From positions 1 to 64,000 of IMG/VR virus record IMGVR_UViG_3300028048_000055: 64,000 nt of DNA; one strand, 5' to 3'. This document shows, piece by piece, positions 16,999-55,852 of this stretch (the stretch's first letter is position 1; every line of letters begins with the position of its first letter). The notes beneath the pieces are model-generated. The model worked only from the letters and a program-made list of their open reading frames with translations, was not told the DNA's origin and did no database searches. Both the position numbers and the translations under genes were made by a program. Source of the DNA: a virus. Taxonomy: Duplodnaviria; Caudoviricetes.

Positions 16999-18189
16999 AT
17001 GATGCAGATACAAGGCAAATACGGTATTGCTGAAGTTTTTACAGATAATGTGTGTACAGAAGCATATACACAAATTCTTAATATTATGAATCAATGTTGG
17101 GCAAGAAATGCTGATATTAAATTTATGCCAGATATTTCGCCCGGACGTGATGCTTTGGTAGGCACTACCATGAAAGTTACCGATAAGGCAGTTCCAAATT
17201 TAATTGGTCCAGATATTGGATGCGGTATGCTTGTCGCAAAGCTTAAGGACAAGTTTATTGAATTTGGAAAACTTGATAAAGTTATCAAGGAAAAGATTCC
17301 ATCCGGTAAAAGTCATAATGATAAAAAACATCGTTATGCTAAAGAATTTGACGAAGAATTTGAAAAACTTATCGCTAATGTTAAGCGTGAAGAACTTCTG
17401 AGTATTTGTAGCCTTGGGTCGGGCAACCATTTCATTGAATGCGATAAGGATGAAGACGGTGCATTCTATATAGTTATTCATTCCGGTTCTCGTCATTTGG
17501 GTGTTGCTACTTGTGAATATTGGCAAAATCTTGCAATTAAGGATTGTGCTGACTTGACAGCAATTCGAGGTGCTGAAATAGCCAAGTATAAGAACCAAGG
17601 AAAGACGGATGCTGAAATTAAGGAACTTATGAAGGATTATGACCATTTCTCTGTTCCTAAGAATCTTTCTTATTTGACTGGTGAACATATGCAGGGTTAT
17701 CTGCATGATATGGAAATTGTCCAGCAGTTTGCCGTTATGAACCGTGCCGCAATGCTCGATGTTATTGTCAAGGAAATGGGTTTCAAGGTTGTCGAAAAGT
17801 TTGAAACTATTCACAACTATATCGATCTTAAGAATATGATTCTCCGTAAGGGTTCTATTTCTGCACAAGAAGGCGAAAGGGTCATTATTCCTATGAATAT
17901 GAGAGATGGTTCTTTGATTTGTGTCGGTAAGGGAAATCCAGATTGGAATTATTCAGCACCTCATGGAGCAGGTCGTTTAATGACCAGAAGTGATGCTAAG
18001 AACTCAATTTCTATGAAGGAGTATAAAGATGCTATGAAAGGAATTTTCACGTCCTGTGTGTCTTCCGCGACGATTGACGAGTCTCCTATGGCTTATAAGC
18101 CGATGGATGAAATCATAGCAAATATTGAACCTACTTGCACTATCGAAAAGATTATCAAGCCGGTTTATAACTTCAAGGCGGCATTTTAA
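16999..18189 (+). CDS. rtcB: RtcB-family RNA ligase
   Basis: MPD, DIGCG, SLGSGNHFIE, HSGSR, HNY, RKG, IPMNM, SAPHGAGR, DESPMAYK motifs. Confidence 0.95.
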   Translation: MMQIQGKYGIAEVFTDNVCTEAYTQILNIMNQCWARNADIKFMPDISPGRDALVGTTMKVTDKAVPNLIGPDIGCGMLVAKLKDKFIEFGKLDKVIKEKIPSGKSHNDKKHRYAKEFDEEFEKLIANVKREELLSICSLGSGNHFIECDKDEDGAFYIVIHSGSRHLGVATCEYWQNLAIKDCADLTAIRGAEIAKYKNQGKTDAEIKELMKDYDHFSVPKNLSYLTGEHMQGYLHDMEIVQQFAVMNRAAMLDVIVKEMGFKVVEKFETIHNYIDLKNMILRKGSISAQEGERVIIPMNMRDGSLICVGKGNPDWNYSAPHGAGRLMTRSDAKNSISMKEYKDAMKGIFTSCVSSATIDESPMAYKPMDEIIANIEPTCTIEKIIKPVYNFKAAF

Positions 18190-42542: not shown

Positions 42543-42605
42543 ATGCAATTAGTAATAACAACAAACATGACACCAGTCAATAATCCAAAGGTAACTTTCG
42601 ATTAG
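42543..42605 (+). CDS. attenuator leader peptide 1 MQLVITTNMTPVNNPKVTFD
   Basis: GAGG SD; T/N/V/P/M-rich, matching downstream tRNAs. Confidence 0.85.
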   Translation: MQLVITTNMTPVNNPKVTFD

Positions 42606-42666: not shown

Positions 42667-42680
42667 AATTTTCCTTTTAT

Positions 42681-42994
42681 TGTTCCATAGCTCAGTTGGT
42701 AGAGCGACGGACTGTTTGAAATAGACACTTATATTGGAAACGATATATGAAAATCATCGCTAAGTCGGTGAAACCTGTAAAATGGCAACGCCGAGCAAGG
42801 ATTAGAAATAATCTATGTGTAGAGACTTTATACGATGAGCCTAAGTCAGTAATGATATGGCTAAGACAAAGTCCAGACTACAAACGAGTGTCCAATTTGC
42901 GCGGTGGGGGGCTTAACACCCATGCGGATGCTTGGTAACGAAAGTTATAGTAGTATGAATCCGTTGGTCCCTGGTTCGAGTCCAGGTGGAACAG
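42681..42994 (+). tRNA. tRNA-Asn(GTT) interrupted by a group I intron
   Basis: exon1 42681-42716, exon2 42958-42994 form a perfect cloverleaf. Confidence 0.92.
42717..42957 (+). ncRNA. group I intron (241 nt, no ORF)
   Basis: U.G pair at the 5' splice site in P1, terminal G, core elements TCGGTGAAACC, AACGCCGAGC, GTAGAGACT, AAGACAAAGTCC. Confidence 0.9.
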
Positions 42995-43000
42995 CTAACA

Positions 43001-44541: not shown

Positions 44542-44660
44542 TATAGCATAGGTAGTTCCTATTACTAAGCGTATAGCTCAACTGGTGGAGCAGTTACCGA
44601 AAGGTAAAAGGTTGTCGGTTCGAATCCGATTGTGCTTGCCATTCGATACTACCCGCTATA
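44542..44660 (+). ncRNA. TCCTAT scaffold copy 2 enclosing an anticodon-less tRNA body (44567-44641, GAAA loop, CCA)
   Basis: TATAGC/GCTATA, GGTAGT/ACTACC. Confidence 0.75.
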
Positions 44661-48612: not shown

Positions 48613-48734
48613 CGACGAGTAGCTCAATTGGTAGAGCACATGTTTTTTATACCAACCGCTACTTGGCAAACTTGGTTCCTATTAATTATGGAATAGGTCC
48701 ATGGGGGTTGTAGGTTCGAGTCCTACCTTCCCGG
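48613..48734 (+). ncRNA. tRNA-like RNA with a circularly permuted TCCTAT scaffold in place of the anticodon loop
   Basis: D and T arms intact; T-ACCAAC-C-GCTA-CT-TGGC-AAA-CTTGGT-TCCTATT inside the CATG/CATG stem. Confidence 0.65.
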
Positions 48735-50331: not shown

Positions 50332-50395
50332 CTAAATTAAATTTTAATATTTAAAAGGATTGACATTAGTCAATCCTTTTTCTATATTATAGTAT

Positions 50396-51247: not shown

Positions 51248-51353
51248 GTTATTTCTTGGTGAAATAGACGCCACAGTTTAAGTAAAAGAGATTAAGTAAT
51301 AAAAATAAGGATTGACTAATGTCAATCCTTATTTAAATTTTTATAATAATTTA

Positions 51354-51901: not shown

Positions 51902-51930
51902 TTTACAAGAGTTAAATAATTTACTATATT
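51902..51930 (+). promoter_or_regulatory. sigma70-type promoter of tRNA block 4
   Basis: TTTACA-N17-TATATT. Confidence 0.8.
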
Positions 51931-51951: not shown

Positions 51952-52071
51952 AATAGCAAAAGCGGTTCCTATAACCAGAGGAATAGCTTAGTTGGTTAGA
52001 GCAACGCAGCAATGCGGAGGCCGTCGGTTCGAGTCCGATTTCCCCTACCATCAAGTTTACTGCTCGCTATT
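51952..52071 (+). ncRNA. TCCTAT scaffold copy 6 enclosing an anticodon-less tRNA body (51977-52050, GCAA loop, CCA)
   Basis: AATAGC/GCTATT, AGCGGT/ACTGCT. Confidence 0.75.
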
Positions 52072-52121
52072 TTTACAAAAACAGGAAAAAATTTTTTATA
52101 TATAATATAAAGGTTAAGAAA

Positions 52122-52223
52122 ATGACAAAGTTTGTAGTTGATATGCATGATGTTGATACTCGCCGCGATGGACGAGGTTTCGGCAAGCATGATAAGGATC
52201 GCTACAGACACAGGGTCATTTGA
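52122..52223 (+). CDS. attenuator leader peptide 4 MTKFVVDMHDVDTRRDGRGFGKHDKDRYRHRVI
   Basis: AAGGT SD; D6 R6 G3 K3 H3. Confidence 0.9.
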   Translation: MTKFVVDMHDVDTRRDGRGFGKHDKDRYRHRVI

Positions 52224-52250
52224 TATTAACTATATAAAGAGTTTATAAAG

Positions 52251-52283
52251 ATGATTCCTGTGTAAAAACGGGAATCATTTTTT
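52251..52283 (+). terminator. attenuator terminator 4
   Basis: ATGATTCCTG/CGGGAATCAT plus T tract. Confidence 0.88.
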
Positions 52284-52287
52284 ATTT

Positions 52288-52358
52288 GGTCTCATCGTTT
52301 AATGGATGGACACTAGCTTGTCACGCTAGAAGTACGGGATCGTGACCCGTTGAGACCG
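52288..52358 (+). tRNA. tRNA-Asp(GTC)
   Basis: cloverleaf. Confidence 0.88.
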
Positions 52359-52365
52359 CTAATAA

Positions 52366-52430
52366 AATAGCATAAGAAGTTCCTATTGAAAAATACAGAC
52401 TGCAAATCCGTTAATATACTTCTCGCTATT
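52366..52430 (+). ncRNA. TCCTAT scaffold copy 7 (Cys GCA anticodon loop)
   Basis: AATAGC/GCTATT, AGAAGT/ACTTCT; ACAGA-CTGCAAA-TCCGT. Confidence 0.75.
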
Positions 52431-52435
52431 AATTT

Positions 52436-52509
52436 GGTACCTTAGTTCAGTTGGTTAGAATGCCAGCCTGTCACGCTGGAGGTCACGAGATCGAAGCTCG
52501 TAGGTATCG
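52436..52509 (+). tRNA. tRNA-Asp(GTC)
   Basis: cloverleaf. Confidence 0.92.
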
Positions 52510-52566
52510 TTAAGTCTGTTAAATTATTTTTGACAGGTTCGAAGAATAAAGAATTATATATAATAT

Positions 52567-53331
52567 ATGAATTACAGAAACATATATTATAAGATAATTG
52601 AGAAAGCAAAAAACGAGGATAAAAATGGACACAGACAGTTAGGTTATTTTGAAAAACATCATATATTACCTAAGTCATTAGGCGGTAGTAATGATAAAAA
52701 TAATTTAGTTAAACTTACAGCACGTGAACATTTTATTTGTCATTGGCTACTTGTTAAAATGTATGATAAAGGAACTGATGAAAGAAATAAAATGCTATGT
52801 GCTCTTTGGCGAATGCGTTCAAATCCATTACAAAATCATATACGGTATACTAATGCTAGAACATATGAAAATTTAAGAATAGAATATTCAAAAATTATAA
52901 GTAATCAAATGCATATTATACAAATGGGTAAAAACAATTCACAATTTGGAACTAAATGGTATACAAATAGAAATACAGGAGAAAGTAAAAAATTTAAAGA
53001 AAAACCAAAAGAAGAATATTGGATTGAAGGTAGAAATTTGTTTCATGGCGAAAGCAGTGTATTAAAAATAAAATTAATAACATTACGACATACTGAAACT
53101 AAAGTGCCGCAAAAAAATTATTTAAAATCAGTTGATGATGCACATAAATTATGGGATGAGTTTCATTCTGGAACTTATGAAAAATTAGATGACTTTGCTA
53201 AAATACACAATAAAACTAGAAGTGCAATATTTGTAAAATTTAAAAGATATATACCAGCATTTAATACAGATAAAAAACGTAGTTGCAGAAGTTATAAATC
53301 AAATAATATATTAATTGGAAAATATGAATAA
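52567..53331 (+). CDS. HNH homing endonuclease
   Basis: EKHHILPKSLGG...NLVKLTAREHFICHWLL. Confidence 0.9.
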   Translation: MNYRNIYYKIIEKAKNEDKNGHRQLGYFEKHHILPKSLGGSNDKNNLVKLTAREHFICHWLLVKMYDKGTDERNKMLCALWRMRSNPLQNHIRYTNARTYENLRIEYSKIISNQMHIIQMGKNNSQFGTKWYTNRNTGESKKFKEKPKEEYWIEGRNLFHGESSVLKIKLITLRHTETKVPQKNYLKSVDDAHKLWDEFHSGTYEKLDDFAKIHNKTRSAIFVKFKRYIPAFNTDKKRSCRSYKSNNILIGKYE

Positions 53332-53344
53332 TAGTTTTGAATAT

Positions 53345-53419
53345 AGTCTCGTAGGCTAAGTGGATTTAAACCAGAAGACTACGAATCTTCAATTTCCAGT
53401 TCGAATCTGGACGAGACTA
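53345..53419 (+). tRNA. tRNA-Arg(ACG)
   Basis: cloverleaf. Confidence 0.88.
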
Positions 53420-53567
53420 CTAGAGTTGTCAGCTTAACAACTTTAAATAAATGAGTTCCTGGAGTTTGTAGGTAGCTTCTGCACAAAATCAAAAACCTTC
53501 ATTATGCGGTGGGAGTTTTGCTGGCTTCTCGTGTCCGACACCGGGCAGATAAAAAACCAGTATTTAT

Positions 53568-53641
53568 GCGGTAGTAGCTCAACTGGTAGAGCACCGGATT
53601 GCCATTTCGGAGGTTTGTGGGTTCGAGACCCATCTACCGCT
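53568..53641 (+). tRNA. tRNA-Gly(GCC)
   Basis: cloverleaf, U73. Confidence 0.92.
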
Positions 53642-53650
53642 CTAAAATTT

Positions 53651-53722
53651 GGATCTGTAACTCAGAGGAAGAGTACCTGCCTCTTAAGCAGGGAGTCGTG
53701 ATATCGTAATTCACCAGGTCCA
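53651..53722 (+). tRNA. tRNA-Lys(CTT)
   Basis: cloverleaf. Confidence 0.88.
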
Positions 53723-53737
53723 TTAAAAAATTTCATC

Positions 53738-53808
53738 CCATGTGTAGTGTAACGGTAGCACGCAAGTTTGTGGCACTTGAAGATTGGATTCGACTTCCAA
53801 CCTATGGA
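53738..53808 (+). tRNA. tRNA-His(GTG), no encoded G-1, A73
   Basis: cloverleaf. Confidence 0.8.
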
Positions 53809-53812
53809 TAAT

Positions 53813-53884
53813 GCGGTTATGGTGTAACTGGCAACATAATAGTCTTCCAAACTGTAGTTTCGGGATCGTACCCCGATAGCCGCT
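53813..53884 (+). tRNA. tRNA-Gly(TCC)
   Basis: cloverleaf, U73. Confidence 0.88.
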
Positions 53885-53887
53885 CTA

Positions 53888-54607
53888 ATGAATTACTTAG
53901 AATTAAATGATAAAGGTAAGCTCGGAAGTGATGAGCAAAAATTGGCCGACTATTTTGGAGTCGGTCATTATACTACATTTTATAAAAAGCATTTTTTACA
54001 AAATAAAATAAAACTCACTAAGGATGATTTTATTGCAGGCGTAATTCCAGTAATGTTTTGCGCTATGAAAAAACTTAACATTGATTATAAGCATGATGAT
54101 TATCCTGAACAGCTACAAAAATATCTTCATCGTAGAATTTGGGAATCGACTCTTGGTCGTATAAAAACTAGTGTCTTTAATGATTATCTATTTGGACCTG
54201 TTTTTATTAAACCAAAAGATAAATTAAAAAAGTTTACTGGTTTTGTTTTAAATTCAAGAGATGATTGGCTTCTTACTGAAGGCGCAGGCGATAGCACGAA
54301 AATTATCTGTTCAAAACCGGTAAAATGGGTTACAGAATATCGTATTCCTGTAATTAATGGCGTCGCAAGAGATTATTGTCATTATTTTGGAAATCCAGGT
54401 ATATTTGTAGATAAGGCTGTAATTCAAAATATGATAGGTGATTGGAAAGATTCTCCAAAAGCATATTGCTTGGATGTTGGAGTCTTAGATACTGGAGAAA
54501 CTGCATTAATAGAAGTTAATGATGCATTTAGCTGCGGTAGTTACTCAATGAGTGCTGAAACCTATGGTGATTTACTGACAACAAGATGGAATGAGTTAAA
54601 AGGTTGA
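53888..54607 (+). CDS. ATP-grasp (R2K/DUF4343-like) protein
   Basis: DYPEQL, FIKP..K.FTG, EYR, LDVG..LIEVND. Confidence 0.8.
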   Translation: MNYLELNDKGKLGSDEQKLADYFGVGHYTTFYKKHFLQNKIKLTKDDFIAGVIPVMFCAMKKLNIDYKHDDYPEQLQKYLHRRIWESTLGRIKTSVFNDYLFGPVFIKPKDKLKKFTGFVLNSRDDWLLTEGAGDSTKIICSKPVKWVTEYRIPVINGVARDYCHYFGNPGIFVDKAVIQNMIGDWKDSPKAYCLDVGVLDTGETALIEVNDAFSCGSYSMSAETYGDLLTTRWNELKG

Positions 54608-54638
54608 CGAAAGTCAACCTTTTTTCTATATTTAAATT

Positions 54639-54953: not shown

Positions 54954-55017
54954 TAGGATAAAGGTTGACGAAAGTCAATCTTTTTTCTATATTATAATAT
55001 GGAATAAAGGATTAATA

Positions 55018-55408: not shown

Positions 55409-55852
55409 ATGAGAAGACTATTTATTATTAGAAAAGATTTACATCTTACAGGCGGTAAACTAGCCGCCATGATAGGACATTGTGCAGAATGTTATTGGAT
55501 GAACTTAATTAAATCTGCCAATCGACCGTTTAATGACGGTCCAGGTACATTAGTATCTTTTGTCATCGACGATGATGTTATGCAAAATTATATTCAAGGT
55601 ATTTTCACTAAGACCATTTGTGAAGCAAAGAACCTTAATCATTTGATGAAGGTTGTTGATATTGCTAAAAAACTTGGTCTTGTTGAAGGTACTGATTACG
55701 GTTTTATCGATGATGTATGTAAGACAGAACTTACTCCAGAATTTACCGATGAAAATGGTGTTGACCGTTGTCGTGTAGGAATCTGGTTTAAACCGTTGTC
55801 GGATGAAATCAGTCATAAGCTTAGTAAGAAATATCAATTATACAAGGGTTGA
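55409..55852 (+). CDS. peptidyl-tRNA hydrolase 2 (Pth2)-like protein
   Basis: IIRKDL...GKLAAMIGH, TKTIC, IDD.C.TE motifs. Confidence 0.85.
   Translation: MRRLFIIRKDLHLTGGKLAAMIGHCAECYWMNLIKSANRPFNDGPGTLVSFVIDDDVMQNYIQGIFTKTICEAKNLNHLMKVVDIAKKLGLVEGTDYGFIDDVCKTELTPEFTDENGVDRCRVGIWFKPLSDEISHKLSKKYQLYKG

Follow-up and report, generated by a model that had tools for sequence, protein, structure and literature searches.

A 33-codon leader ORF that ends in front of an intrinsic terminator precedes the fourth of six tRNA blocks in a Caudoviricetes phage contig, and we propose that this arrangement, module 4, is a ribosome-mediated (leader-peptide) transcription attenuator which gates the phage tRNA block behind it; we estimate the probability of this reading at roughly 0.84. 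A preliminary description had proposed such an attenuator at this place, and analysis of the sequence supports it, since every feature that defines an attenuator at this level is present and statistically non-random. In addition, five sister modules follow the same logic, the length of the ORF and its cognate codons are conserved, and the sister leaders follow tRNA genes that have moved.

According to the mechanism that we propose, transcription from the promoter at 51902-51930 would run into the 33-codon leader ORF. Fast decoding of the cognate codons would bring the ribosome to the last codons or the stop codon, where it would cover segment 2 (52208-52221); with segment 2 covered the terminator would form and RNA polymerase would halt just ahead of tRNA-Asp. 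When any of the six tRNAs is scarce or uncharged, the ribosome would lag within codons 3-26, leaving segment 2 free to pair with the 5' arm of the terminator once this arm has been made. With the antiterminator paired, no terminator would form and the tRNA block would be transcribed. As the block yields those same tRNAs whose supply the leader probes, the module would feed back negatively on the combined host and phage pool of six tRNA species and provide them on demand. We infer that the leader-4 ORF is translated, that its translation is coupled to transcription in the host and that read-through changes with tRNA supply.

The record is an IMG/VR contig of an uncultured giant phage (Caudoviricetes), which has 165,061 bases and is estimated to be 40% complete, and the window, i.e. 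the whole stretch of 64,000 nucleotides analysed here, corresponds to its positions 1-64,000. All tRNA genes of the 165-kb record lie within 42681-63228 of the window. Relatives were obtained from pattern scans of IMG/VR and metagenomes; three members of the family are complete genomes (411-424 kb) that have terminal repeats, and phages of this kind are carried by rumen or cattle-gut samples. A blastn search against 50,697 phage records gave only tRNA-level matches to cyanophages and no cultured relative among these records. Diverged versions of the module were sought with the terminator pattern and with scans for the neighbouring R2K protein, and these returned the same family only. The 23-tRNA array of the cultured Bacteroides phage crAss001 (L090 1400-6500), inspected by eye, shows no comparable leader-terminator module, a weak negative that applies to this one phage.

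Leader codons and the tRNA genes of the block

The features of module 4 are collected in Table 1. Its promoter, together with the common sequence downstream of it, also heads modules 1, 3, 5 and 6, and in the relative G001 it directly adjoins the leader UTR. The A/T box is found in five copies in the 165-kb record, each of them 5' of a leader; we considered that it might be a general phage promoter and ruled this out, given five copies per 165 kb that always stand ahead of leaders. The AAAGG at its end lies 8 nt 5' of the leader-4 ATG and shows no change across 10 relatives.

Table 1. Features of module 4, in coordinates of the window
Feature	Position	Strand	Remark
Sigma-70-like promoter (TTTACA, 17 nt, TATATT)	51902-51930	+	10/12 matches; heads module 4
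tRNA-like RNA with GCAA tetraloop, CCA encoded	51977-52050	+	Between promoter and leader 4; Rfam tRNA 47.8 bits
A/T box ending in Shine-Dalgarno (SD) AAAGG (52109-52113)	52080-52113	+	Near-invariant in 10 relatives
Segment 1: SD, start, first codons	52112-52140	+	From minimum-energy folds; predicted in silico to pair with segment 2 in untranslated RNA
Leader ORF, 33 codons and TGA	52122-52223	+	Putative sensing zone, codons 3-26
Segment 2: antiterminator strand, last codons and first base of stop codon	52208-52221	+	From folding
Segment 3: 5' arm of terminator	52247-52263	+	Common to antiterminator (52249-52263) and terminator
Segment 4: 3' arm of terminator (52268-52282) and T tract to 52287	52268-52287	+	Terminator -18.4 kcal/mol
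tRNA-Asp(GTC), two genes, starts 52288 and 52435	52288-52510	+	First genes behind terminator
HNH homing endonuclease gene	52567-53331	+	Inserted in block 4 after second tRNA-Asp
tRNA-Arg(ACG), Gly(GCC), Lys(CTT), His(GTG), Gly(TCC)	53345-53885	+	Rest of block 4; starts 53345, 53568, 53650, 53738, 53813

Block 4 was first described as Asp twice, Arg(ACG), Gly(GCC), Lys(CTT), His and Gly(TCC), and we located all seven tRNA genes, between 52288 and 53885; they correspond to six tRNA species and five amino acids. In this genome the block is split by the HNH gene, ahead of which lies a promoter-like site (52530-52557), while in G002 it is contiguous. With the block interrupted in this way, control by the terminator may in part be lost over the five distal tRNAs in this genome. 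Genes for HNH homing endonucleases are found at differing places within the tRNA blocks of different relatives, in G003 between its two Asp genes. A gene for an R2K-clade ATP-grasp protein (53888-54607) starts 3 nt past the last tRNA of block 4 and may be co-transcribed with it.

The product of the leader ORF (52122-52223, plus strand) is MTKFVVDMHDVDTRRDGRGFGKHDKDRYRHRVI, after which comes TGA. As had been noted before, 21 of the 33 codons specify Asp, Arg, Gly, Lys or His (D6, R6, G3, K3, H3). We then scored each codon for cognacy to the tRNAs of block 4 by wobble rules: a tRNA with G34 was taken to decode codons ending in Y, one with U34 those ending in R, one with C34 those ending in G, and one with A34, present as inosine, those ending in U, C or A. 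By these rules 19 of the 32 codons after the start are cognate, compared with 19.4% of the codons in the 130 long ORFs of the phage (binomial P = 7.5e-7). A six-frame survey of the whole 165-kb record gives 817 ATG-ORFs with lengths of 20-45 codons, among which leader 4 has the highest cognate fraction, and windows of 32 codons taken from the long ORFs contain at most 17 cognate codons, none reaching 19.

All six isoacceptor classes are represented in the leader, and 17 of the 19 cognate codons fall within codons 3-26, where they comprise Asp GAY, Arg CGC/CGA, Gly GGA and GGY, Lys AAG and His CAY. Indeed, the match exceeds the choice of amino acids and extends to the choice of codons: Lys is encoded by AAG in three cases out of three, and outside segment 2 Arg is encoded by three CGC and one CGA, CGC making up only 3.7% of the Arg codons of the phage. 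The two non-cognate Arg codons, AGA and AGG, are both inside the pairing segment 2. The regulatory codons are interspersed and do not form a run; the 13 non-cognate codons of the 32 include some (Val, Phe) that are served by tRNAs of other blocks. The other frames and an antisense ORF (51996-52211) were examined as coding alternatives and rejected, as they show no conservation.

The same organization recurs in the window, where six leaders start at 42543, 44797, 49033, 52122, 57377 and 60358. Every one of them has a ribosome-binding site and a terminator adjoining a tRNA block, and in each the 3' end mimics the 3' arm of this terminator. For six blocks out of six, the small ORF with the best cognate fraction in the genome (985 candidates) is the one just upstream of the block, and the true assignment of leaders to blocks is the best of 720 permutations. 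The codon choice of the sister leaders is equally specific: Ser is encoded by AGY (4/4) before Ser(GCT) and by TCN (6/6) before Ser(GGA/TGA/CGA), and Gln by CAG (3/3) before Gln(CTG).

The tRNA set of block 4 is constant across relatives, with a shuffled gene order. Since this set does not vary, the test of whether codons follow tRNA genes was drawn from the sister modules, in which about five such events were seen. In G002 and G005, tRNA-Gln(CTG) and tRNA-Cys reside in block 5 (Trp/Leu/Ser) instead of block 6 (Tyr). Leader 5 of these two relatives contains two CAG and two TGY codons, none of which is present in leader 5 of this window; in their leader 6, CAG is missing (one CAA is present) and so are Cys codons, where leader 6 of this window has three CAG and four Cys codons. 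Block 6 of G002 also has two Met tRNAs, and its leader has three internal ATG codons versus one here; block 6 of G001 has Ile(GAT), and its leader has four ATY codons versus one here. Conversely, block 3 of G001 and G003 is devoid of Ile and the leader has one ATY codon versus five here. An exception is leader 3 of G002, which retains four ATY codons with no Ile tRNA found.

These observations bear on the signal. The same device might naturally respond to amino-acid starvation, i.e. to uncharged tRNA and not to the amount of tRNA, and would then be a multivalent starvation sensor placed before tRNA genes. A stalled ribosome cannot distinguish a missing tRNA from an uncharged one, and PMC1183508 describes classical attenuators as responding to charging. 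However, extra tRNA gives no relief from amino-acid starvation, and the match lies at the level of isoacceptors and codons, with AAG and not AAA, CGC/CGA and not AGA, and likewise in the sister leaders CAG and not CAA, and AGY versus TCN. Moreover, leader codons track individual tRNA genes between blocks, which suggests that tRNA supply is the selected variable. We therefore consider starvation improbable as the natural signal.

RNA pairings and their conservation

The terminator hairpin (about 52247-52283) has 15 pairs, and tRNA-Asp starts directly behind its T tract, so that there is no space for a promoter between the two. The preliminary description stated that a sequence at the end of the leader takes part in a pairing, and we could indeed delimit this pairing: 52208-52221 is predicted to pair with 52249-52263, in the 5' arm of the terminator, through 7 + 6 base pairs around a small internal loop. 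The duplex has an energy of -17.0 kcal/mol, which is equalled or surpassed by 2 of 1000 shuffles. As isolated hairpins, the antiterminator (-19.5 kcal/mol) and the terminator (-18.4 kcal/mol) are about equal. In the predicted fold of the untranslated RNA (-58.1 kcal/mol, z -6.6), the SD/start region forms a hairpin with segment 2, and the terminator is present as well.

The effect of the ribosome was then simulated by folding the RNA with a ribosome mask. As long as segment 2 is free, i.e. with the A site at codon 26 or earlier, transcripts that stop short of segment 4 fold best into the antiterminator; with the A site from codon 27 through the stop codon, segment 2 is covered and the antiterminator is blocked. 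In the full-length RNA, the terminator is the minimum-energy fold at every position of the ribosome in silico. As the terminator always wins at equilibrium, the switch must be kinetic, as in trp.

The pairings are maintained in relatives. The antiterminator is paired in 94.6% of cells versus 28-58% in slid controls, the pairings among orthologues are kept in 92-95% of cells versus 28-64% in slid controls, and the pairing of segment 1 with segment 2 is kept in 85-94% of cells across relatives. Stem covariation among the leader-4 orthologues amounts to one double-sided change only and is not significant, because the divergence among these orthologues is too low. In modules 2, 3, 4 and 5 the leader end is complementary to the terminator arm, each time with a different sequence, and 0-19 of 1000 shuffles are as good. 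Between this window and G002, module 5 shows joint changes in the end of the leader and in the two arms of the terminator. The motif CACAGG is present at the 3' end of the leader in both modules 3 and 4, which indicates that the C-terminal residues are dictated by RNA pairing. The stop codon of leader 4 is TGA, TAG or TAA in relatives, at one fixed position that is constant relative to segment 2.

A simpler reading would dispense with the switch: a fixed leaky terminator would end a short transcript and allow a constant low transcription of the tRNA genes, the pairing being incidental. The in silico predominance of the terminator at equilibrium and the non-significant covariation among orthologues are both what one would expect in that case. 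Nevertheless, a leaky terminator would leave unexplained the codon match, which ranks first for six of six blocks, and the way in which leader codons follow the tRNA content. The complementarity of leader end and terminator arm in modules 2-5, each with its own sequence, and the fixed position of the stop codon relative to segment 2 also argue against it, and we find this reading decidedly improbable.

The conservation of leader 4 itself was examined in 12 distinct DNA variants, all of which have 33 codons, with zero indels. Codons 14-27 show 93-98% nucleotide identity, compared with 65-71% for the adjacent R2K ATP-grasp gene, and the spacer past the stop codon shows about 60% identity in more distant relatives. 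This strong conservation of the core may come partly from a small internal hairpin (helix 5) instead of codon identity. Among the cognate positions in codons 3-26, 15 of 17 never leave the cognate set and show only synonymous changes or switches of class (Asp12Lys, Asp16Gly); positions 3 and 9 (His9Lys and His9Tyr) are exceptional. Non-cognate positions drift, for instance position 8 among Thr/Ile/Met and position 11 among Cys/Phe/Val.

A conserved ORF length and a good ribosome-binding site could also belong to a gene for a small functional peptide, a charged 33-mer, which merely happens to end in a terminator. We give this very little credence, since the replacements of Asp by Lys, Asp by Gly and His by Lys would alter a peptide drastically yet make no difference to a codon sensor, six unrelated peptides would all have to mirror the downstream tRNA set, and the C-terminal residues appear to be set by RNA pairing (CACAGG in modules 3 and 4). 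The probability of an accidental ORF in an intergenic region is negligible: small ORFs are common (817-985 in the record), but leader 4 ranks first of 817, the leaders are likewise at the top for six of six blocks, and 12 variants, among which three different stop codons are used, all retain the ORF.

Other elements of the tRNA region

Besides the attenuator-like modules, the region contains several unusual elements. The tRNA-like genes at 51977-52050 and 44567-44641 of the window and at L055:2881-2951 have a GNRA tetraloop (GCAA or GAAA) on a stem of 4-5 bp, which replaces the 7-nt anticodon loop and has three bases fewer. ARAGORN does not call the tRNA-like RNA at 51977-52050 here, and assigns a 2-nt anticodon to its counterparts in relatives. 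Most relatives retain this RNA, G003 with a compensatory change in the stem; G001 lacks it, so that the switch can probably do without it. It might act as a decoy, as a processing signal or as an anticodon-independent acceptor.

An apparent lack of tRNA-Arg(ACG) in G001-G003 proved not to be real: where the gene would be expected there is an unusual one, whose anticodon loop clearly reads CT-ACG-AA. This gene (L055:4175-4254 in G003, and at the same place in G001 and G002) has normal anticodon and T arms and a long extra arm, and its D region is much reduced and lacks a normal D arm. Its Rfam score is only 33.6 bits, and ARAGORN does not call it. In this window and in L037, a canonical Arg(ACG) takes the place of the odd form.

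The first tRNA of block 1 (42679-42997) is an Asn(GTT) with an insertion of ~245 nt just past the anticodon. The intron mode of ARAGORN calls this gene otherwise, Rfam gives no match to a group I intron, and the relatives are uninterrupted. A recurrent element with GTTCCTAT is found at 48613-48734, 51952-51976 and 52366-52434 of the window and also at loci of G002, G003 and G004. It flanks tRNAs or inserts in the anticodon regions of tRNAs, giving tRNA genes of 111-122 nt.

Four hairpins (50353-50388, 51303-51347, 54598-54632 and 54960-54993) have a TTGAC -35 box within their stem and, downstream of it, a run of T and a TATATT -10 box, and thus combine terminator and promoter; they are reminiscent of the promoter stem-loops of T4-type phages. 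Finally, the window encodes proteins of translation and RNA repair, an RtcB RNA ligase (16999-18189), the R2K-clade ATP-grasp protein (53888-54607) and a PTH2 peptidyl-tRNA hydrolase (55409-55852). RtcB and PTH2 fit a phage that invests in sustained translation.

Comparison with known systems and meaning of the finding

Leader-peptide attenuators such as trpL, hisL, pheL and leuL are well known, and some enterobacterial ones are multivalent, thrL sensing Thr and Ile, and ilvL/ivbL sensing Leu, Val and Ile. The multivalent thrL and ilvL leaders are the closest to the architecture of module 4. As in thrL and ilvL/ivbL, a short ORF carries the regulatory codons and more than one amino acid would be sensed; as in these enterobacterial leaders, there are four RNA segments with alternative antiterminator and terminator hairpins, a stop codon at segment 2 and an intrinsic terminator before the regulated genes. 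Unlike them, module 4 would control tRNAs and not biosynthetic enzymes, and its product would feed back directly on the sensor. It would sense five amino acids and six isoacceptors at once, with a match at the codon/anticodon level, and its regulatory codons are interspersed instead of forming a run. It is, in addition, borne by a phage, as one of six parallel modules. The classical scope of these attenuators is biosynthesis or synthetase genes, whereas the genes behind the module-4 terminator are seven tRNAs plus the inserted HNH gene.

The pheM leader attenuator of the E. coli pheST operon, which encodes phenylalanyl-tRNA synthetase, is chromosomal and senses one amino acid via a run of Phe codons. 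It resembles module 4 in that leader-peptide attenuation is applied to a gene of the translation apparatus, and differs from it in controlling a synthetase, in responding to a single amino acid through a Phe-codon run and in its chromosomal location. T-box riboswitches resemble our model in that a 5' leader chooses between terminator and antiterminator according to the state of one particular tRNA. In a T-box, however, neither ORF nor ribosome takes part: the RNA itself binds the tRNA, by means of a specifier codon and the T-box sequence, and the genes under control are those for synthetases, transporters and biosynthesis and not those for tRNAs. A permissive Rfam scan of 42000-64000 with E values up to 1 detected no leader family and no T-box (RF00230), only tRNAs and chance-level sRNA matches.

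Debate over why phages have tRNA genes goes back about 50 years, according to PMC10264068. Phage tRNAs are described as replacing host tRNAs lost to defence nucleases, including tRNA-Lys (PMC10264068, PMC11555353, PMC11464382). The biological setting of these systems is the same as the one considered here, phage tRNAs offsetting depleted or cleaved host tRNAs. These papers treat what the tRNAs do, and on-demand control is not described there; in PMC10264068, the words attenuat-, terminator and leader do not occur. Full-text literature searches returned no report of leader-peptide control of tRNA genes. What appears to be new is leader-peptide attenuation before tRNA genes, the mechanism itself being already known from amino-acid operons and described in PMC1183508 and PMC3082878.

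Homeostasis, decay of host tRNAs after shut-off and cleavage by defence nucleases are all conceivable as natural triggers. A broader and much more tentative idea, which we find possible though rather doubtful, is that the six attenuators form a damage-sensor array for the tRNA pool of the cell and provide an on-demand counter-defence alongside RtcB and PTH2. Each block would then be switched on only when the host tRNAs for its codons have been cut by anticodon nucleases or have decayed after host shut-off, and module 4 would report an attack on the Lys, Arg, Asp, His and Gly tRNAs.

If module 4 is an attenuator as proposed, textbook attenuation of amino-acid operons would extend to tRNA genes, with six isoacceptors sensed at once, and the modules would offer compact parts for tRNA-supply sensors. 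The replacement of depleted or cleaved host tRNAs by phage tRNAs would become directly testable with simple reporters. For the phage itself, it would mean that its tRNAs are supplied on demand and balanced set by set.
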